Virus record (IMG/VR): IMGVR_UViG_2737471828_000007
Strand: one strand, 5' to 3'
DNA length: 24,832 nt
Source of the DNA: a virus
Lineage: Duplodnaviria; Heunggongvirae; Uroviricota; Caudoviricetes
A model generated the notes under the pieces. The model ran no database searches, was not told the DNA's origin, and saw only the letters and a list, made by a program, of their open reading frames with translations. The position numbers and the translations under genes were made by a program. Shown here in pieces: positions 12,666 through 24,832 of the stretch (position 1 is the first letter of the stretch; each line of letters begins with the position of its first letter).

Positions 12666-13711
12666 TGAGCAGAAAAAATAAAAAAGTGCGCATGAGTTCA
12701 CGCATTGATCTCGCTGATGCGCTCAGGAAAGAATCATCGCTCAGTGCATTCACATTTGATGGTCCTTATCGCCTGACCGGGCATGACCTGCTGGACAATA
12801 TGTACTGTGCTGATAACGGGCGGTGGTATGAAACCCCGGTGGACTGGTACGGTCTGGCAAGAGCTGCCCGGCAAACGTCCTGGCATCAGTCTGCGCTTTA
12901 CTTTAAGCGCAATGTATTACTCGGTTGCTACATCCCGCACCCGCTGCTTTCCCGGCAGGATTTCTCGGCGCTGGCGCTGGACTGGTTTGTGTTCGGTAAC
13001 GCATTCCTTGAGCTTCGAAGCAATATGCTCGGCGAACCGCTTAAATTACGGCACGCACTGGCGAAATACATGCGACGCGGAAGCGATCTTGAATCATGGT
13101 GGTATGTGCAGGATGGCAAGGACGCGTTTCAGTTTCGCCCAGGCAAAGTGTGTCACCTGATGAATCCTGACATTAACCAGGAAATCTACGGCATGCCGGA
13201 ATATCTCGGCGCATTACTCTCGGCCAGCCTGTCTCATTCGGCGGACATGTTCAGAAAACTGTATTACGACAACGGATCCCACGCCGGGTGCATCATCTAC
13301 ATCGGTGCAGCGCAGGTAAACCGCGAAAGCATGGACTCCCTGAAAGAAACGCTACAGGGTGCGCGTGGTGGTGGTGCGTTTAAAAACGTGCTCATTCATG
13401 CGCCCAACGGGGGCAAAGAGGGGGTGCAAATTTTGCCGTTCCAGCAGATCACCGCAAAGGATGAGTTTATGAATGTTAAGGCGGCATCCCGTGATGATGT
13501 GCTGGCTGCGCACCGCGTTCCGCCGCAACTGATGGGGGCGATGCCGGGCGAAAAAAGTGCGTTTGGCGATGTGGAGAAGGCAGCGCGGGTTTACGCAATT
13601 AACGAGCTGATGCCCGTCATGGAGGCTATGAAGCACATCAATGACTGGCTTGGCGAAGAGGTGATCCGTTTTAACTCTTATGCTCTTCTTGATGAAAAAA
13701 CAGCCCCGTGA
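12665..13711 (+). CDS. Q: Portal (capsid-vertex) protein Q (P2 gpQ-like)
   Basis: 348 aa ORF immediately after P; P2 Q-like sequence. Confidence 0.9.
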   Translation: MSRKNKKVRMSSRIDLADALRKESSLSAFTFDGPYRLTGHDLLDNMYCADNGRWYETPVDWYGLARAARQTSWHQSALYFKRNVLLGCYIPHPLLSRQDFSALALDWFVFGNAFLELRSNMLGEPLKLRHALAKYMRRGSDLESWWYVQDGKDAFQFRPGKVCHLMNPDINQEIYGMPEYLGALLSASLSHSADMFRKLYYDNGSHAGCIIYIGAAQVNRESMDSLKETLQGARGGGAFKNVLIHAPNGGKEGVQILPFQQITAKDEFMNVKAASRDDVLAAHRVPPQLMGAMPGEKSAFGDVEKAARVYAINELMPVMEAMKHINDWLGEEVIRFNSYALLDEKTAP

Positions 13712-13727
13712 TGGGGCTGTCCTTTTT
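13693..13727. terminator. Bidirectional intrinsic terminator shared by Q (+) and the convergent gene at 13726..14250 (-)
   Basis: Perfect 7-bp stem CAGCCCC/GGGGCTG with 5-nt loop, A6 run upstream and T5 run downstream; the Q stop codon sits in the loop. Confidence 0.7.
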
Positions 13728-14250
13728 ACCAGAGTTGAACCATTTTCTGGGTGCCGTCAGGCTTGAGATTATCAATTTCAGAGAGAACGTAATATTGAAT
13801 GGCTTCACAAACGGTGGTGTAAGGTGAATTACCTTCTTTAAGTGGCACGATATTATTATTAACGCGAACCTGTATTTCATCGTTATACATTGCGATCGAA
13901 ACAGGAGTGTGCACGAACGCGACTTCGCCAGGTGTGTCGTCAACCACCGTTTCAATACTAAAAGTCAGTTTTCGCTCATCATTGCTGCCCCGTGCTTTGG
14001 GGGTAGCGGCAGGGATCTGGGATAAAGGCATTCTGCGAAATCCTTCGGCTGCTTCCAGTCCGCATGAAACGTAATGCTGGCGATTACCGTCGCTATCTGT
14101 CCAGGTCTGTGATGGCAGCTCCAGCGAGATTTCATAATCATCAACAATGCCCTGGGCAAGGCGTACAAGCGGGGTCAGATCTTCATTGCGGCGAAAGCTC
14201 TCCTTTACCTGCTCCCGTTTTTCTCTTAACTGCTTGTAATTAATGACCAT
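13726..14250 (-). CDS. Hypothetical protein (174 aa), standalone cargo gene next to the expected cos end
   Basis: Track ORF 13726..14289; start placed at internal ATG (MVINYKQLREK...) preceded by GGAGG; convergent with Q; I recognise no family; AT-richer than the flanking structural genes by eye. Confidence 0.65.
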   Translation of the reverse strand: MVINYKQLREKREQVKESFRRNEDLTPLVRLAQGIVDDYEISLELPSQTWTDSDGNRQHYVSCGLEAAEGFRRMPLSQIPAATPKARGSNDERKLTFSIETVVDDTPGEVAFVHTPVSIAMYNDEIQVRVNNNIVPLKEGNSPYTTVCEAIQYYVLSEIDNLKPDGTQKMVQLW

Positions 14251-14289
14251 AAGACAGCCTCCATTGATTTCTTTGCTCGTATTTTGCAC

Positions 14290-14836
14290 TTATGAAGTAT
14301 GATCGGCAAGGTGCCGTATCGCTGACGCGCTTCGCTTGTCTGCTGCTTCGCCGGGGCATAAAAAATTTATGCCCCGACTCTCCAGCTCCTGTATCAATCA
14401 GATAATTTCACGACGCCTTCCAGCTTATTGTCATCATCGACGGTCAGGCTCTTACGCAATCCCGCCGTGCTGACTGCATGTTCTCGTCGCCTCAGTGCGA
14501 TTTTGACGGCCTTATCAGTCACCCCATCAAATCAAAAGTCCTCACGTATTTTTCACGCTCAGCGTGAGAAAGACAGCCATTCTGTTGTGTCGCTGCGACA
14601 TCGTTCAGGGAATGCTGTTTACCCCCTGAAACGCGGGCTGTTCCCCCGTCACCTGCGCGCAGAAAAAGCGCGTTTTTTTGTGCACGCACGGATCCTTGAC
14701 GGATCCAGCCGCCATGCGGGCCGGAAGGGTAAAAAGTCGTTCAAAAAAATTGTGCAAATTTGTGCACTTTTGTGCAAACAAAAAGCGCCCCTGAGGCGCT
14801 TTAGTGTTTTATAGGTTGTGTATATTGGCTGGGTCC
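14290..14836. promoter_or_regulatory. About 550 bp non-coding region with several palindromes and repeats; probable promoter/operator region of the 13726..14250 gene and candidate location of cos
   Basis: No credible ORF (the only track ORF is Arg-rich and low-complexity); 10-bp palindrome GGGGCATAAA/TTTATGCCCC near 14353..14375; TCACGCT-c-AGCGTGA near 14555; TGTCGC-t-GCGACA near 14587; TTGTGCA repeated three times at 10-11 bp spacing near 14749..14778. Confidence 0.5.
14771..14802 (-). terminator. Intrinsic terminator at the end of the parM-parR-orf-orf operon
   Basis: Stem AAAGCGCC/GGCGCTTT with 5-nt loop followed on the minus strand by a T-rich run; about 35 nt downstream of the stop at 14837. 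Confidence 0.65.
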
Positions 14837-15100
14837 TTATCCTGCTGTGCTTTCAACTGATGAGGGGAACAAAATCTTTTCATCAAACCCTGCATTCATA
14901 TCATGGACAGCAACACACCAATCCATTGACGAACGATTATCAAGAGCCTCCATGATTTCATCCATGCGGCGTAGGTCATACAGGTAAATGTTTTTATCGC
15001 CAATGGTGTAAAAACCAATTTTTTTCGGTGATGGACAGCGATCAAGAACGTCCTGTAATTCGCTCAACCATGCTTGTTCTTTTTTTGTCAAAGTTGCCAT
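14837..15100 (-). CDS. Hypothetical protein (87 aa), last gene of the par operon
   Basis: Track ORF 14837..15121 (TTG first); ATG at 15100..15098 with AAGGAGAG RBS, 1 nt after the stop of the upstream gene; no family recognised. Confidence 0.6.
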   Translation of the reverse strand: MATLTKKEQAWLSELQDVLDRCPSPKKIGFYTIGDKNIYLYDLRRMDEIMEALDNRSSMDWCVAVHDMNAGFDEKILFPSSVESTAG

Positions 15101-15101
15101 A

Positions 15102-15533
15102 TCACTCTCCTTTGATGCCAATGTCTACAGCTTGGCAAGCCTCTTTGGTCACCCAGTCAATAGCGTCTTTCCATACTCCAGTTTCGACTGGCGGATTCTC
15201 ACGCTTTACCTGTTCATAGAAACGCACCGCTCTAACCAGTCCATCTGGTACTGCTGGCGCTGGCGGCTCTCGATACATAGGGATAACACGTCGCGGGTCC
15301 GCGTATTTATCTGGCGGACACTGAAATATCTCACCGAAACCATACTGCTTGACATCACGCAGTTCCTCATCATCAGTCCATGCAACAGGTTTCGCTTCCA
15401 GCGATGTGAGTGCGATTTTCAGTGCGATTAACATATTGTGATCGTTTTCATCAAGGCCAAACGGGATGTCTTCACGACACGATTCAAGGTCTGCAATTTT
15501 GCGTTGTAACCATTTTTTGGGGATAGTTGCCAT
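15102..15533 (-). CDS. Hypothetical acidic protein (143 aa), third gene of the par operon
   Basis: ATG at 15533 with GGAGAGGAG RBS, 19 nt after the parR stop; no family recognised. Confidence 0.65.
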   Translation of the reverse strand: MATIPKKWLQRKIADLESCREDIPFGLDENDHNMLIALKIALTSLEAKPVAWTDDEELRDVKQYGFGEIFQCPPDKYADPRRVIPMYREPPAPAVPDGLVRAVRFYEQVKRENPPVETGVWKDAIDWVTKEACQAVDIGIKGE

Positions 15534-15552
15534 AGATGCTCCTCTCCTGTTT

Positions 15553-15867
15553 TCACTCTGGGAAAAATGACTGAATGTTCTTTCTTATCTCGCTAGTGCT
15601 GTGATTGCTTCCGGTGGCAGGTGCGCTGGCATATTTACTCTGAATATTATTCTTGGCTGGCGCAGCTCCTTCTTCCGGCCATTCGGCCAACCAATAGGCA
15701 AATGCAGGATCGCGTTTTATGAGTGCCAGCCCGGCCAGAAAGGCCGCGCGTTGCGCGCGGCTGCGTTCAGAGGCTGGCAGGCTGTCGAGGTAATTACACG
15801 CCTCCCGTTCACTATTGACGGCGACTGGCTTCAGATAGAAACTTATCCGTCTGGTTGGTGTCGTCAT
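15553..15867 (-). CDS. parR: ParR/StbB-like centromere-binding protein (type II partition adaptor)
   Basis: Track ORF 15553..16002; start placed at internal ATG (MTTPTRRISFYLKPVAV...) with AAGGAG RBS, 4 nt after the parM stop; ISFYLKP...LDSLPASERSRAQRAAFLAGLAL resembles plasmid R1 ParR (ribbon-helix-helix N-terminus). Confidence 0.75.
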   Translation of the reverse strand: MTTPTRRISFYLKPVAVNSEREACNYLDSLPASERSRAQRAAFLAGLALIKRDPAFAYWLAEWPEEGAAPAKNNIQSKYASAPATGSNHSTSEIRKNIQSFFPE

Positions 15868-15871
15868 TGGT

Positions 15872-16831
15872 TTACTCCTTGTCCATTGCGTACAGCCCAT
15901 TAACCAGAGCAAACTGTGGCACCCCGTCCGCGATGAAAGTCGCATTAACTCCGCAGGCTTCGCGGATAGCGGGTGCCACAATCTCCGCCCCGCCACCGAC
16001 AACCATCACCCGCCCGTAACCCGAAAAACCCGCCAGCGCGCGGATCACGCGTTGTTTCAGTGTTTCTTCCTTTTCACGAATAACCGCCATCAGGCTGGCG
16101 TAATGCGCGTCATTGTGGATGTGCTGGCGCAGCCAGGCTTCATCATGGCGATGTTCGATAATGGTATTGGCGATGTGGTGACTGGTGCGCATACCGTTAG
16201 TGGCCATCACCGACAGTACGGCATCGGCCATCAGAGAAACGCCTACGTGTGGATCGCAAAACATCTGGCTGATACCTGCCAGTTGCCCCTGAACCTTTGC
16301 CACATCCAGCGTGGTTCCGCCCAAATCCACAATCAGCAGGGATTCAAACGGACTCATGTCAGCCAGTGCCTTAAAGCCAGCCGGAATGGATTCAGGCATA
16401 ACCCGTACGTTACGGATAGTGAATGCTTCGCCGTTCTGGTACTCCACCGGGCGCATAACGTTCGCTTTTTTGCGGTTGATGTTGGTCATGTCCGGCTGTG
16501 CGTTTGTGTCGAAATACTCGCTCAGTGGCAGGGTGACAACCACATCCACCTCCTGTGGCGTGATGCCTGATTTGACCAGCGCGTGATGAATGGCAATGAC
16601 ATTCACATCGCTGTACTGGTATTGCGTGTCGGTCGTCTGGACAAAGCGATCGCTGACCGGATCAAAACCATAGCGCACGCCATCAAGCATATAGTTCGCG
16701 GGCTGCGTGCCACAGAACGGCGCAGACCATTCCGACTTGAAGCTGTTCGGGCTGATGGCGTTGCGGCGTTCGCCGTTCTCAGTCCATGCCAGCTTGATGT
16801 TGGTGGAGCCGTCGTCAATACAAATTTTCAT
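15872..16831 (-). CDS. parM: ParM/StbA-like actin-fold segregation ATPase (type II partition)
   Basis: 319 aa; hallmark ParM motifs IDDGSTNIK, ISPNSF, QYSDVNV..HHAL, VMPESIPAG, DLGGTTLD, GGGAE, LVNG; same length as R1 ParM. Confidence 0.85.
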   Translation of the reverse strand: MKICIDDGSTNIKLAWTENGERRNAISPNSFKSEWSAPFCGTQPANYMLDGVRYGFDPVSDRFVQTTDTQYQYSDVNVIAIHHALVKSGITPQEVDVVVTLPLSEYFDTNAQPDMTNINRKKANVMRPVEYQNGEAFTIRNVRVMPESIPAGFKALADMSPFESLLIVDLGGTTLDVAKVQGQLAGISQMFCDPHVGVSLMADAVLSVMATNGMRTSHHIANTIIEHRHDEAWLRQHIHNDAHYASLMAVIREKEETLKQRVIRALAGFSGYGRVMVVGGGAEIVAPAIREACGVNATFIADGVPQFALVNGLYAMDKE

Positions 16832-16860
16832 GTCGTTTTTCCTTATGTTGATTAATTAAT

Positions 16861-16975
16861 CGTTTACGGGATTCTGAAATCCCGTTTTTGCCTGTTTTAT
16901 GCGCGCTTCATATATCGCGGCGCGTTTTTTGCTCATTTACGGGATTTGTGAATCCCGTTTTTGTCTGTTTTTTGT
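16861..16975. repeat. parC-like repeat region upstream of parM: two direct repeats of about 38 bp, each with a perfect 8-bp inverted repeat, flanking a GC-rich palindrome
   Basis: TTTACGGGATTCTGAAATCCCGTTTTTGCCTGTTTT (about 16863..16900) and TTTACGGGATTTGTGAATCCCGTTTTTGTCTGTTTT (about 16936..16973), about 73 bp apart; each contains ACGGGATT-N4-AATCCCGT; between them CGCGC...GCGCG followed by T6. Overlaps the 3' end of the A ORF. Confidence 0.6.
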
Positions 16976-19733
16976 TTCCACTGGTCAGGCCACCCCGCAG
17001 CAGGTCTGCTTTGCGGCGGGCGCGTTCAGTGGTTTCACTGATTCTCTGTGCGTGCTCTGCGTCGCGGATGGCGCGCAGCATGTCAGAAAGCACGGTAACG
17101 GGTGTTTTCATGGTGTTCTGGTCTTGCTGAAGTGTGGATGCCAGGCGTGCGGCGGCTTCAGGGTCTGATACCCCAAGCTGTTCCAGATAGCTGGCGACCG
17201 GGTTATGGCGGATCTCCGTGCTGCTTACGCCGTGATTACGGCTCAGGCGTTGCCAGAGCTGCGTGATTCGGCTGTCCGGGCGGGTATCCGGTTTGCGTAC
17301 AATTTCAAATCCCTGCGGTGCAATGATGCTGCCGTCAACGTACAGACTGCCGCCCCGTAACAGGTGCTGCATCTGCTGTTCACCGATATGCAGGCCGAGA
17401 GATTCAGCAGACTCCCGCCATTCTTTAGCGAGTAATTCGTAGTTATCAGGCAAAGGCCGCTGCTGTTTGCGGCTCTGTGTCCAGCTCTGCATTTCATCAC
17501 TGCTGTTTTTTGCCTGTTTGTCACGAAGCGAACGCATCAGCGCCCGGCGTTCGTGCCGTTTCAGTGAGCGCATCCATTCGTTCACTTCAACGCCGTCAGG
17601 GAGCTGCGGCCACGGTGCTGGCCGTTCTTTCGGCTGTTCTGTCCCGTTGTTGTCCGTTTCCTGTACACGGGGACAGTTATTGCCACGAGTCCAAGGGGCG
17701 GCAGGGCCGCCCTGAAGGTCAAAACCATTTTCGCGGGCGCTGTCTTCCGCTTCCGGTTTACGTCTTACCAGCTTCCAGTTATCCGGATGCGTGCACACAC
17801 GGGAGGATTCCCCGATGAATGGCGACCAGATCCCGTAAATCTGTACACTCTGTTCGCCGTAATCGTTCAGCTCATCTGCGAGGTCGTAGGCTGTGCGAAT
17901 CAGGTAGTCCTTGCGCGGAACAAGTACGCCACCCTGTTTTTCAATGTAGGTGGCAAAACATCCGGCATCAGCGGCAGCGAGTACCGCATCCATTGCGTCA
18001 TCCTTCAGCCGTTGCGGGCCTTCCGGGTTGCGTGCCATCTGGCTGGCAAGGCGGCGCAGTTCACGCCACACCTGACGGGAGGGGATGCCAAAGAACTGGA
18101 ACTGGCGGACCCGATGAAGGCGCGCCCAGCCGATGGCGCGCTCCACGCTCTCGGCCATTGATTTTCCGGTTTCGTGGTCAACGCGTGGTTTGCCCGTTTT
18201 CGGGTCGATTCCATCCACGGCGCGGCTGTCCAGGTTTTTTCCGATGTAGGTGGCGATGTAGCTGGTTGGCGTGCCTTTGGAGCCGTCGACGTACTCCACC
18301 TTAAAGCGCGGAGTAATATCATTGCCCAGCTCGTGGCGGTCTTCCTGAATGGCAATATCGCGGGTGATGGCCACGATGCTGTCGATTTCTTCCGGATGAG
18401 CAAAGACCATCATATGCCAGTGCACGGTGCCGTCATGGTGAGGCTCCACCGTGCGGATGCCATACCAGCGCAGGCCGTCGCGGTTCAGTTTTTTGCGGAC
18501 CGCCGCAAAAAACGTGTTAACCAGGTAATCGCTGGAGTCGCGCATGGTGGCCCCGTTCCATTTGGGATTCGGATGACCGTTCTCTGTTGTGGCGTGGTAT
18601 TTTGACGGGCAGGTGACAGTCAGAAACACCGCTTTGTCGCCACGGGCTTCGGCCAGAAGTTCCAGTCCCTTCATGGTGGCCATCATTTCTGCCTTACGGT
18701 GAACCGGGTTACTTACTCCCGCGTAATACACTGTCTCGAGATCAATCGTGAAACCGTCTTCGTTTTCCAGTTCGAAGCTCTTCAGGAAGTCGCGGGTTTT
18801 CTCGCGCTGTGCGCGAAACTCGCTTAACGCGTCCTGGCTCAGATAGGGTGATGTTTTTCTGGAAACCAGACAGGCGGCGCGGAGTTGTTCTTCTCTCCAC
18901 TCACAACGTAACAGCCACAGTTTGCGTTTCCACCAGTCCGCACAGGTCAGGCGAAGGATTGCGCCCGGCAGCAGTTCCGTATCCGGTTCGCTCTTGTTCA
19001 GGGCTTCGTAATGTGGCGGCATGATGTGCAGGCGTAATGCGATACGAGCCAGCATCCGGTAAGCCTTCAACATTACATCCATGGTCAGCTCGCCATCTCT
19101 GGCACCAAAGCCATCGCAGAGTGTTTCGAAGGTGCTGCTGAACATCGCCGCGGTCATGGTGGCCAGCGTCTGTATCTGGTGCTTGTTGAGCTGCGGCAGG
19201 TAAAGCAAATCGTCCAGGCGTTCGCGCCCGGCAAGGGAGCGATAACCCGGTGTCAGCCAGCGTCCGTCAGTGCGATCCAGACGTTCGAATATTTTGCGCA
19301 GGGTTCCGCGTGCATAGCGTTCCGCCTGCCAGCTCTTTTTGCCTTTCTGGCGATCGGCTTCCTGTTTTTTGCGCAGGAAAGAGAGGTGGTGGCTCAGTGG
19401 TTCACGCAGATAAACAGGTAGTGCCTTTAGTGTGGCAAAGGCACGGGCTACCGGGTCTTGTTCTGTTGCCCGGCGCTTACTGATGATGCTCTGTGCCAGC
19501 TTTTCACGCTGTCCGGCTTCCTCAAGGGATGCCATGAGTTTTTTACCCATGGCGGATTGTGCGAAAAAGGCTTCTTCCTTCGCTCCCTGTTCTTCCTGTG
19601 CCCTTTTGTCCGCCTCAAGGTAGTAACGGATGGCGCGTTGCAGGTCGGTTTCAGTTTCCTGCCTGCGCTCCGTAAATCTGGCCGGATCAATGGCTGGCCG
19701 TGGTTCATTCCAGCTCCATGCAAACTCACTCAT
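16908..19733 (-). CDS. A: Replication initiation endonuclease A (rolling-circle, P2 gpA-like)
   Basis: Track ORF 16908..19760 (GTG first); ATG at 19733 abuts the stop of the upstream gene; conserved HHDGTVHWHMMVF metal-binding region and YIATYIGKN active-site tyrosine region typical of P2 A. Confidence 0.85.
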   Translation of the reverse strand: MSEFAWSWNEPRPAIDPARFTERRQETETDLQRAIRYYLEADKRAQEEQGAKEEAFFAQSAMGKKLMASLEEAGQREKLAQSIISKRRATEQDPVARAFATLKALPVYLREPLSHHLSFLRKKQEADRQKGKKSWQAERYARGTLRKIFERLDRTDGRWLTPGYRSLAGRERLDDLLYLPQLNKHQIQTLATMTAAMFSSTFETLCDGFGARDGELTMDVMLKAYRMLARIALRLHIMPPHYEALNKSEPDTELLPGAILRLTCADWWKRKLWLLRCEWREEQLRAACLVSRKTSPYLSQDALSEFRAQREKTRDFLKSFELENEDGFTIDLETVYYAGVSNPVHRKAEMMATMKGLELLAEARGDKAVFLTVTCPSKYHATTENGHPNPKWNGATMRDSSDYLVNTFFAAVRKKLNRDGLRWYGIRTVEPHHDGTVHWHMMVFAHPEEIDSIVAITRDIAIQEDRHELGNDITPRFKVEYVDGSKGTPTSYIATYIGKNLDSRAVDGIDPKTGKPRVDHETGKSMAESVERAIGWARLHRVRQFQFFGIPSRQVWRELRRLASQMARNPEGPQRLKDDAMDAVLAAADAGCFATYIEKQGGVLVPRKDYLIRTAYDLADELNDYGEQSVQIYGIWSPFIGESSRVCTHPDNWKLVRRKPEAEDSARENGFDLQGGPAAPWTRGNNCPRVQETDNNGTEQPKERPAPWPQLPDGVEVNEWMRSLKRHERRALMRSLRDKQAKNSSDEMQSWTQSRKQQRPLPDNYELLAKEWRESAESLGLHIGEQQMQHLLRGGSLYVDGSIIAPQGFEIVRKPDTRPDSRITQLWQRLSRNHGVSSTEIRHNPVASYLEQLGVSDPEAAARLASTLQQDQNTMKTPVTVLSDMLRAIRDAEHAQRISETTERARRKADLLRGGLTSGNKKQTKTGFTNPVNEQKTRRDI

Positions 19734-20119
19734 GGCTGGTATCCCGTCACGCGCTGCCACTCCTGCGAGAAGATGGCGGAAAGGCGGTTAAATTCAGCGG
19801 TGTATTCACTCAGCGAGGCACACCCGCCAGCAGTGCGATGCGCCAGCATTGCCGCAAATACGGAGGCCGGGGAGTCATAATACGCCAGCAGTGATTCGCC
19901 GTGTGGTGTCAGGCAGTGCAACGCCAGCCCGTGTGGTGTGAAATCCACGCGGTAGCAGTCGTCTACTGTGAAATAAAGGGTGTCCGCATTCTCCGGTTTT
20001 GTGGTGCGTGCTCTGTTGTCACGACCACGGATGTAGAGATCAAATAATCCCTGAAGAATGGGAGCCAGACGGGTGTCCTGTGTGCGCACCCATCTTGTGA
20101 AGTCATGAGCGTCAATCAT
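19730..20119 (-). CDS. Hypothetical early protein (129 aa) immediately upstream of A
   Basis: ATG at 20119; stop abuts the A start; position equivalent to P2 orf82/orf83; no family recognised. Confidence 0.6.
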   Translation of the reverse strand: MIDAHDFTRWVRTQDTRLAPILQGLFDLYIRGRDNRARTTKPENADTLYFTVDDCYRVDFTPHGLALHCLTPHGESLLAYYDSPASVFAAMLAHRTAGGCASLSEYTAEFNRLSAIFSQEWQRVTGYQP

Positions 20120-23776: not shown

Positions 23777-23842
23777 CCCTTTATTATTCTTACGTTTTAC
23801 AAACTGGAAATGTCTTTCCTCGTTTCACCGGAGGGCTTGCCA

Positions 23843-24832
23843 ATGGCAATTAAAGCGCTCGATGGTGGACGGTATAAAGTGGATGTTAGACCGCGTGGCC
23901 GAAGTGGACGTCGGATTCAGCGGATTTTTAAGAAAAAGGCAGATGCAGTGGCCTTTGAGCGTTATGTTCTCAGCCACATGCACGATAAGGAATGGCTTGA
24001 AAAGCCAACAGAGCAACGTCATCTCTCAGATCTGCTTCCGTTATGGTGGGAATTGGGTGGACGCAATAAGCCATATGCTAACGGCGTTCTAACCAGGTTG
24101 AAAAAAATCATCAAAGAAATGAATGATCCAAGGGTTAGCCAGATTAATGCTCGTTTCATGGCCGCTTATCGAAGCTCCCGTTTATCCTTGGGAGTAAAAG
24201 AGTCTACTGTTCGGCGTGATGAGTCGGATCTCGGAGGAATGTTTACACTCCTGGCAAATGCCGGGGAATTTCACGGAGAAAATCCGCTCCGCGCCCTCCC
24301 CTCTTTGAAACGAAAATCACCCGAAATGACGTATCTCACCACGGAAGAAATCGCCAAATTACTGGATGCAGTAAGCGGTGATGCCCGGCGGATTACGCTA
24401 CTTTGTCTCAGTACTGGTGCGAGATGGGGAGAAGCGAAAAATCTGCGCGCGGAACACATCATCAATAACCGCGTGACGTTTAACAAAACTAAAAACGGAA
24501 AAGTTCGAATTATTCCTGTCTCTGATGAAGTTGTTAGTGAGATCAAAACAAAGAAATCCGGCCTTTTGTTTGACGTCAATTATGAGGAATATCGCAAGGT
24601 GCTTCGCAGTGTTAAGCCTGACCTACCGAAAGGGCAGGCTGTACATGTTCTACGCCATACCTTTGCAGCTCACTTTATGATTAATGGAGGAAATATACTT
24701 ACGCTCCAGCGAATTATGGGGCACGCCACGATCCAGCAAACTATGACCTATGCGCACCTCGCTCCTGATTTCCTCCAGGATGCAATTTCACTTAATCCGT
24801 TAAAAGGAGGTATCCACATTTCATCCACATAA
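23843..24832 (+). CDS. int: Tyrosine integrase (P2 Int-like)
   Basis: Track ORF 23810..24832; start at ATG 23843 (MAIKALDGGRYKVDVRPRGR...) with GGAGGG RBS; conserved LSTGARWGEA, HVLRHTFA, GHATIQQTMTYAH catalytic motifs; TAA stop is the last three bases of the window. Confidence 0.9.
   Translation: MAIKALDGGRYKVDVRPRGRSGRRIQRIFKKKADAVAFERYVLSHMHDKEWLEKPTEQRHLSDLLPLWWELGGRNKPYANGVLTRLKKIIKEMNDPRVSQINARFMAAYRSSRLSLGVKESTVRRDESDLGGMFTLLANAGEFHGENPLRALPSLKRKSPEMTYLTTEEIAKLLDAVSGDARRITLLCLSTGARWGEAKNLRAEHIINNRVTFNKTKNGKVRIIPVSDEVVSEIKTKKSGLLFDVNYEEYRKVLRSVKPDLPKGQAVHVLRHTFAAHFMINGGNILTLQRIMGHATIQQTMTYAHLAPDFLQDAISLNPLKGGIHISST

Follow-up and report, generated by a model that had tools for sequence, protein, structure and literature searches.

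What is a block of repeated, palindromic DNA doing across the end of a phage replication gene, directly upstream of a parM-parR pair? ParMRC is a textbook example of how plasmids are segregated, and the customary picture of its centromere is one of direct-iteron arrays placed around the par promoter. In the stretch of DNA analysed here (the window, 24,832 nucleotides of a virus record in IMG/VR), a 115-bp interval at 16861-16975 occupies this place in a phage, and an initial annotation had offered two readings of it, ParR-binding centromere repeats or insulators against antisense transcription, which might also hold together. Comparing sequences, we judge it probable that the interval is the cis-acting, parC-type centromere/operator of a type II ParMRC cassette at the distal end of the early operon. 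No published study of the module came to light in the literature on P88, Xuanwuvirus, Peduoviridae, CP-933T and ParM.

The window is a P88-like prophage (Xuanwuvirus, Peduoviridae, P2 family). Megablast with positions 15400-17400 matched 14 phage records at 95-99% identity, among them Escherichia phage P88 and Citrobacter phage Shae_phiSM. The minus strand carries an early operon of the P2 type whose last genes are A, parM and parR, and the same order (A, a 76-bp gap, parM, parR) is annotated in P88 and Shae_phiSM, where A is given as the replication endonuclease. A repressor-like HTH protein and cox are also encoded in the window. The genes and signals on which the following argument draws are these:

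Positions 23810-24832: integrase.
Positions 16908-19760, minus strand: gene A, P2-type replication endonuclease (Pfam Phage_GPA PF05840, E=5.8e-130).
Positions 16839-16859, minus strand: TTAATTAATCAAC block and AAGGA Shine-Dalgarno sequence of parM, near-invariant among 69 variants.
Positions 15872-16831, minus strand: parM, actin-like segregation ATPase (Pfam StbA_N, E=1.1e-81; ParM C-terminal domain, E=3.7e-68).
Positions 15553-15867, minus strand: parR (StbB family), 104 aa (Pfam PF10784, E=8.7e-25).

A 401-bp probe across the A-parM junction found matches in 1370 of 5426 complete E. coli genomes, at 1530 chromosomal places versus 2 on plasmids. P88-like genomes are also filed as separate circular replicons in three finished assemblies (CP025923, CP025874 and NZ_CP148288.1), which is compatible with an episomal phase without proving one. 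The parM gene is intact in all 81 relatives compared, its variable sites numbering 31, 19 and 137 by codon position, and to judge from this alignment it is under strong purifying selection.

The repeats, the dyads and the GC palindrome with its T6 tract are present in the sequence as the initial annotation described them, except that the two direct repeats measure 42 nt each and not 38 bp. They are 83% identical and lie 73 bp apart, start to start. Each contains a perfect 8+4+8 dyad of the form ACGGGATT-N4-AATCCCGT, followed by TTTTTG, and the two dyads are separated by the same 73 bp, or seven helical turns. From the parM side outwards, the site is built as follows, both repeats belonging to one family (D1):

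Positions 16860-16901: proximal 42-nt repeat, intergenic.
Positions 16866-16885: proximal dyad, ACGGGATT-TCAG-AATCCCGT on the sense strand, a putative ParR site.
Positions 16901-16930: central GC-rich dyad (about 16901-16924) and T6 tract (16925-16930), holding the gene A stop codon.
Positions 16933-16974: distal 42-nt repeat, wholly within the gene A frame.
Positions 16939-16958: distal dyad, ACGGGATT-CACA-AATCCCGT on the sense strand, a candidate site for a pair of ParR ribbon-helix-helix dimers.

The ATG of parM starts at 16831, 35 nt from the near end of the proximal dyad. At the other side, the A frame does run through most of these structures, as had been claimed: it takes in all of the distal repeat and the greater part of the central dyad, and its stop codon (16910-16908) falls in the loop of the central hairpin. 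The central dyad occupies the place where plasmid parC sites have their promoter. Within the 24.8-kb window only two matches to the dyad occur, even with three mismatches allowed; shuffled sequence is expected to yield 0.08 matches, and none of 100 shuffles reached two. A P88-like genome likewise has it just twice in 29 kb. When IMG/VR was scanned for the exact dyad, 76 of 119 loci had ParM, the remainder being lone chance palindromes or contigs cut off at one end. The dyad is not a dispersed repeat.

Where does this unit begin? Two loci, one in NZ_CP024223 and one on an IMG/VR contig, carry the same repeats and parMR next to different upstream DNA, and both match the window only as far as the outer edge of the distal repeat, the break falling between 16973 and 16974. 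Read from these junctions, the repeats and parMR travel as one cassette whose edge is 16973/16974. Conversely, two prophages with a closely related A and without parMR lose homology with the window near 17008. Their A proteins end in ...LLQDKGNSEKKK or ...LLHRTR, whereas that of the window ends in ...LLRGGLTSGNKKQTKTGFTNPVNEQKTRRDI; in NZ_CP024223 an unrelated ORF of 155 aa enters the cassette in the same frame and comes to the same end, ...TGFTNPVNEQKTRRDI. The segment in question is:

Positions 16911-16973, minus strand: KQTKTGFTNPVNEQKTRRDI, the 21 codons by which the cassette prolongs gene A up to the stop codon at 16910-16908.

Among 65 distinct close variants, these 21 codons show 6, 6 and 8 variable sites by codon position, K/E and F/L replacements are common, and several tails are frameshifted. 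The other two sense-strand frames are closed right after the distal dyad by TAA and TGA within an invariant GTAAATGA. With a cassette edge that abuts the distal repeat and no stop codon before it, any upstream ORF has to cross the distal dyad. A thus reads through into the cassette for its last 21 codons, which, as far as these variants tell, are under no selection as protein. The overlap between A and the repeats is therefore a by-product of where the cassette starts, and the constraint runs from the DNA to the peptide. The initial annotation had the repeats constraining the A C-terminus and named, as a finding that would speak against it, A homologues ending at the same position without the repeats. 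The first of these relations is better reversed, the tail being a dispensable read-through that lacks codon-position bias, and homologues without the repeats end 19-25 codons earlier. For annotation, it follows that in these phages the replication endonuclease proper stops short of its final 21 codons. We also considered the dyads as a Cox, repressor or Ogr site, or as the A origin, and rejected these candidates because the dyads travel with parMR and not with A, and occur nowhere else in the phage.

The cassette has been kept well beyond E. coli. Measured against the ParM of the window, ParMs of E. coli and close relatives are 91-100% identical, those of Hafnia, Plesiomonas, Serratia and Enterobacter 54-62% (about 61% in Hafnia and Plesiomonas) and plasmid ParMs about 50%. 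All ParMs retrieved in the 54-62% range come from P2-like prophages, in which they are encoded between A and the portal gene, and P2-like phages of at least five genera keep the parMR cassette at the same genomic position. Hafnia and Plesiomonas have pairs of GGG-N10-CCC dyads, 73 bp apart in the former and 72 bp in the latter. Their positions relative to the parM start (about -128/-55 in Hafnia and -131/-59 in Plesiomonas) are close to those in E. coli (about -125/-52). A ATTAATCAA sequence upstream of parM is common to Hafnia and Plesiomonas too. The arms of these dyads are 3-4 bp long, the loops measure 10 nt and no T-run is adjacent. Among 69 distinct E. coli-type variants, the dyad cores GGGA and AA.CCC are invariant and neighbouring positions vary.

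The presumed ligand is recognisable as well. Residues 6-61 of the window ParR, the ribbon-helix-helix region, match the pB171 ParR structure (PDB 2jd3) with E=0.0047. The protein has an N-terminal RRISFYLKP, corresponding to the ribbon-helix-helix beta-strand, and a C-terminal RKNIQSFFPE that contains the family-wide tail motif RKN..FFP. In R1, it is the C-terminal tail of ParR that contacts ParM. At 104 aa the window ParR is shorter than its relatives (116-147 aa). The type of repeat, moreover, tracks the beta-strand motif. A TRR[IV]SFYL motif goes with dyads in four divergent E. coli ParR alleles and in Hafnia and Plesiomonas, and NRK[IC]SFY goes with ATTTTTCT-type iterons in Serratia, Enterobacter, pCTX-M3 and one further locus (L116); other plasmid ParRs have other beta-strand motifs and other iterons. 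This covariation is suggestive, but it is drawn from two clades and confounded by phylogeny. It rests on few lineages because few usable loci were retrieved: searches of IMG/VR with the Hafnia and Plesiomonas ParMs gave 0 and 1 usable loci, and a search of genome contigs gave 18. Taken with the position upstream of an intact parMR, the co-movement as a cassette and the kept dyad spacing of 72-73 bp, the motif match argues for the reading of the repeats as a parC-like, ParR-binding site.

How parMR is expressed bears on what ParR binding at the dyads might do. We scored sigma-70 promoters by at least 4 of 6 matches per hexamer, at least 9 of 12 in total, A2 and T6 in the -10 hexamer and a spacer of 16-18 nt. 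By these criteria 13 of 15 plasmid-type parM upstream regions have a consensus promoter, 91-135 nt from parM and, as placed by eye, between the iteron arrays; none was found in 11 phage-type regions. The best candidate under relaxed criteria, TTCAGA-16-ATTAAT (8/12), is a weak promoter-like pair over the proximal dyad and was given no weight: its start would fall at or within the Shine-Dalgarno sequence. On the sense strand no terminator-like site was found between A and parM, and the terminator-like sites around the operon are:

Positions 14782-14802, both strands: terminator-like hairpin, the likely end of the A-parM-parR transcript and a stop for plus-strand transcripts.
Positions 14655-14673, plus strand: terminator-like site, upstream of the repeat site.
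Positions 13700-13720, plus strand: terminator-like site with a 9-bp stem, upstream of the repeat site.

The sense-strand terminator at 14802-14782 lies after the genes downstream of parR. Since there is no consensus promoter and no intervening sense terminator, parMR would mainly be read through from A, probably when the early operon is derepressed. Dependence on A would leave the filament system silent while the phage is integrated, and ParR bound at the dyads could also damp read-through from A.

One could go further and suppose that the dyads are a mere ParR operator or roadblock that tunes A read-through, in a module that has ceased to be a centromere and survives as what is left of a plasmid par locus, in decay or put to another use. 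We consider this unlikely. While two sites without a promoter of their own, an element found integrated in nearly all genomes and a shortened ParR would all fit such a remnant, decay is hard to reconcile with a parM that is intact in every relative and strongly constrained, with the conserved tail motif of ParR or with retention of the cassette in P2-like phages of several genera. Moreover, a regulator whose only targets are itself and a filament protein is hard to rationalise.

The other reading in the initial annotation was that of three successive terminator-like structures on the plus strand. Their shape and strand are as described: both dyads agree with a simple terminator consensus on the plus strand, a stem-loop and a U-run, and three local plus-strand hairpins of about -10 kcal/mol each (-10.5 for the central one) are each followed by a T-run, with all T-runs on one strand. 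The central GC hairpin and T-run are found on the antisense strand of the Serratia and Enterobacter sites as well as in Escherichia. That these elements serve as intrinsic terminators and shield A and the early operon against antisense transcripts, whether or not ParR binds there too, is nevertheless quite unlikely in our view. No plus-strand gene ends at the site, the plus strand being antisense to parM and A there. The late terminase-portal unit, which heads toward the site, meets 13700-13720 and then 14655-14673 and 14782-14802, so that the nearest plus-strand units are already closed. In Hafnia and Plesiomonas the dyads are kept, but hairpin strength and T-runs are lost. The stems do not appear to be maintained either: arm changes in the 69 variants are one-sided (TA to CA in 18, AT to GT in 23, GC to GT in 14), no compensatory change in the dyad stems was seen among them, and the strand that would tolerate the changes as wobble pairs differs between the proximal and the distal dyad. 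The central GC dyad was paired in either of two registers, and the 69 variants then included a single double change (GC to AT), the others being one-sided, which is unconvincing as compensation on either strand. In addition, the allele most frequently seen behind the distal dyad reads TTTCTG and not TTTTT, which weakens the U-run to UUUC.

The T-runs themselves have another explanation, one that terminator function does not predict, namely their helical phase. When A/T runs of 4 nt or more within the interval are counted and a period of 10.5 bp is taken, the following feature emerges:

Positions 16885-16973: five A/T tracts with predicted intrinsic curvature, centred at 16887, 16896.5, 16927.5, 16960 and 16970.5.

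The phase vector sum of the tracts is 4.77 of 5 at 10.5 bp (P about 0.0015 for random phases), the top value among 4943 sliding 120-bp windows across the 24.8 kb. Comparable phasing is seen in pCTX-M3-type parC sites (5.56 of 6 and 6.24 of 7) and in a Serratia-type phage site (4.08 of 6). The Hafnia and Plesiomonas sites, when scored, showed no phased tracts, and curvature is not clade-wide. The parC of R1 is strongly curved and folds into a U shape with ParR (PMC2241845), and the tracts described here predict, in silico, curved DNA like that of a parC. Because helically phased A-tracts account for both the positions of the T-runs and their placement on a single strand, transcription is needless as an explanation. 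An insulator role is weakened by all of these observations together, that is, by uncompensated stems, by the loss of the terminator shape in relatives, by terminators further upstream and by the phased tracts.

Folding of the whole interval does not discriminate between the readings. The z-scores are low (-5.1 and -5.7), and on either strand the minimum-energy structure consists of the two near-identical palindromes paired with each other, so we set the whole-interval fold aside as evidence. As for the sense (minus-strand) mRNA, it is very improbable that the stem-loops act there in processing, in stability or in coupling A termination to parM translation: the minus-strand hairpins are as stable as the plus-strand ones (-10.7, -8.5 for the central one, and -10.7 kcal/mol), the A stop codon lies in the central loop and several variants of the proximal dyad could still pair as G-U in the sense strand, but the TA to CA change of the distal dyad (18 of 69) is a sense-strand mismatch, compensation is lacking, an Rfam scan of 16600-17200 at E<=1 gave no match, and the 3-4 bp arms of Hafnia and Plesiomonas with their retained spacing fit a protein site and not an RNA helix.

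We therefore return to the parC-type site as the preferred reading. The interval lies directly upstream of parMR, the ParR is of the ribbon-helix-helix type with a conserved tail, and the repeats are locus-specific and co-inherited; direct iterons of about 11 bp flanking a par promoter, the R1 arrangement, are absent. In the parC of pSK41, as in Arc-type operators, two ribbon-helix-helix dimers occupy a unit of about 20 bp, and pSK41 has four contiguous 20-bp repeats, whereas here there are two dyads with 53 bp between them. By the mechanism that we propose, ParR would bind both 20-bp dyads, one dimer pair per dyad, and the distance of 73 bp would place the two on the same face of the helix. 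The phased A-tracts would pre-bend the DNA, the two ParR-bound sites may then fold into a compact complex, and the ParR C-terminal tails in this complex would capture ParM filaments. The substrate to be segregated would be the phage genome as a circle, whether newly injected, excised or replicating.

Several features of the locus sit less easily with a centromere. The element is mostly integrated, and its need for one is not obvious; the site has only two dyads (four half-sites) where R1 has ten iterons; and its palindromic sites are unlike the direct iterons of the nearest plasmid relatives.

In R1, the promoter core of parC, 39 bp long, lies between two sets of five direct iterons of 11 bp (PMC2241845). 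Like the parC sites of R1 and pCTX-M3, the phage site stands directly upstream of parM-parR with two arms flanking a central segment; it shares the 73-bp arm spacing with pCTX-M3, phased A/T tracts with the pCTX-M3 type, curvature with R1, and a ribbon-helix-helix ParR of the StbB/ParR family with plasmid systems. Unlike R1, it has two 20-bp palindromic dyads in place of direct iterons. It also differs from plasmid parC sites in having a GC dyad with a stop codon at its centre and no sigma-70 consensus promoter, in lying half inside an upstream coding frame and in belonging to an integrating phage; its ParM is only about 50% identical to plasmid ParMs.

A precedent on an integrative element is srpMRC of SXT/R391, a functional type II locus with four 13-bp repeats, some of them inverted, whose half-sites are poor binding targets; its expression accompanies excision and transfer, and it is thought to act on the transient circle (PMC4489591). 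The phage locus resembles it as a type II par locus on a normally integrated element with few repeats. On the other hand, SXT/R391 elements are conjugative and not phages, srpC lies outside any coding frame, and SrpR has no recognisable ParR homology, whereas the phage ParR is a clear StbB/ParR homologue; the function of srpMRC has been shown experimentally, whereas that of the phage locus is proposed from sequence comparison. A second parallel is the Corynebacterium glutamicum prophage CGP3, in which AlpAC is needed for efficient viral DNA replication and AlpA, AlpC and alpS are used after induction for viral DNA transport (PMC4446434, PMC5539076). There, too, an integrated prophage combines cis sites with an adaptor that binds DNA and a filament protein of the actin type; however, the proteins and the host phylum are unrelated, the alpS sites differ and the adaptor is not a ribbon-helix-helix protein of the ParR family.

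We put forward a broader proposal, tentatively and with less than even confidence: P88-like prophages may carry a working, promoter-less ParMRC within their early lytic operon, with a minimal, pre-bent centromere of two dyads that segregates or positions the excised, injected or replicating circle and not a plasmid prophage. If this is true, the module would be a proteobacterial counterpart of CGP3 AlpAC and SXT srpMRC, and it might explain why these phages are occasionally recovered as circular replicons. The site looks like a stripped-down parC, with two palindromic dyads and phased A-tracts, no promoter and half of its length inside a coding frame. Should it prove functional, it would define a minimal centromere usable by ParR and ParM and offer a simple and abundant model, found in roughly one in four complete E. 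coli genomes, and it would mean that P2-like phages use an actin-like motor in an episomal or lytic phase.

Reading frames that run into the par site from upstream were found in several relatives of the window. In some P88-like prophages, a 155-aa ORF lies between gene A, which encodes the replication endonuclease, and the par cassette (locus L004 from NZ_CP024223, 4209-4676 of the locus, minus strand; also the IMG/VR contig L058). This ORF contains CxxC pairs (MIKYCRQCGRELHYKEKFYFSDHICCRC...) and has no match in Pfam; in RefSeq, the stretch is labelled a 'DNA replication protein' fragment. The ORF enters the distal repeat in the frame that A uses in the window, and the two products have a 16-residue C-terminal tail in common. 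Gene A of Plesiomonas likewise runs across the distal dyad (locus L089, 3868-3897), while in Hafnia (locus L087, 3873-3961) a 167-aa ORF of unknown function crosses the distal dyad and stops within the proximal one. Given these Plesiomonas and Hafnia cases, upstream ORFs entering the par site are therefore recurrent in this phage clade.

A different parC layout is seen in P2-like phages of Serratia and Enterobacter (loci L090, 3880-3945; L091, 3880-3950; L096; L117), namely a single long inverted repeat, GGGAAC-GAAATAGAAAAAT ... ATTTTTCTATTTC-GTTCCC, around a GC hairpin. This layout has AACAGGCAAAAACGGGA in common with the window and contains motifs similar to plasmid iterons; such sites may be intermediate between the plasmid type and the dyad type.

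As judged by sequence comparison, the putative dyad-binding protein ParR (15553-15867) is a mosaic with respect to its counterparts in three related elements (L112, L113 and L115). The ParM proteins of these elements are 80-93% identical to that of the window, and the dyads are the same in L113 and L115, where the contig includes the upstream region. Their ParR alleles agree with the window's over the initial ~14 residues (RRISFYLKP) and in the FPE tail at the C-terminus, whereas most of the remaining sequence is divergent. The window's ParR also lacks a middle segment found in the ParRs of Hafnia, Plesiomonas, Serratia and plasmids, and the megablast match to P88 starts only at window position 15815, within parR.

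The segment between the portal gene and parR contains the following features:

13726-14289, minus strand, ORF
14428-14814, plus strand, ORF
14837-15121, minus strand, ORF
15102-15533, minus strand, ORF
14655-14673 and 14752-14802, terminator-like hairpin cluster between accessory genes

None of the four ORFs has a Pfam match. The segment 13726-15533 is different in P88, where a ClpX-type zinc-finger gene is located, and appears to be the variable cargo region of P2-like phages. The hairpin cluster, in which 14782-14802 was flagged on both strands, includes GCGCGCAGAAAAAGCGCGT followed by T7, similar to the central GC dyad and T6 of the par site.

A P88-type A-parC-parM region (ParM identity 98%) on a 226-kb contig of the Vagococcus sp. 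WN89Y (Firmicutes) assembly and an enterobacterial plasmid-type parM in a Lachnospiraceae MAG (L094 and L108, respectively) probably both reflect contaminated or wrongly binned public assemblies. Complete P88-like genomes (31-38 kb, with the integrase) have also been deposited in finished E. coli assemblies as circular replicons of their own (CP025923.1 and CP025874.1 in the phage collection; NZ_CP148288.1, or L111, in the plasmid collection), whereas the remaining copies lie almost exclusively on chromosomes (1530 places versus 2). These circular replicons could stem from spontaneous induction or from a plasmid-like carrier state.
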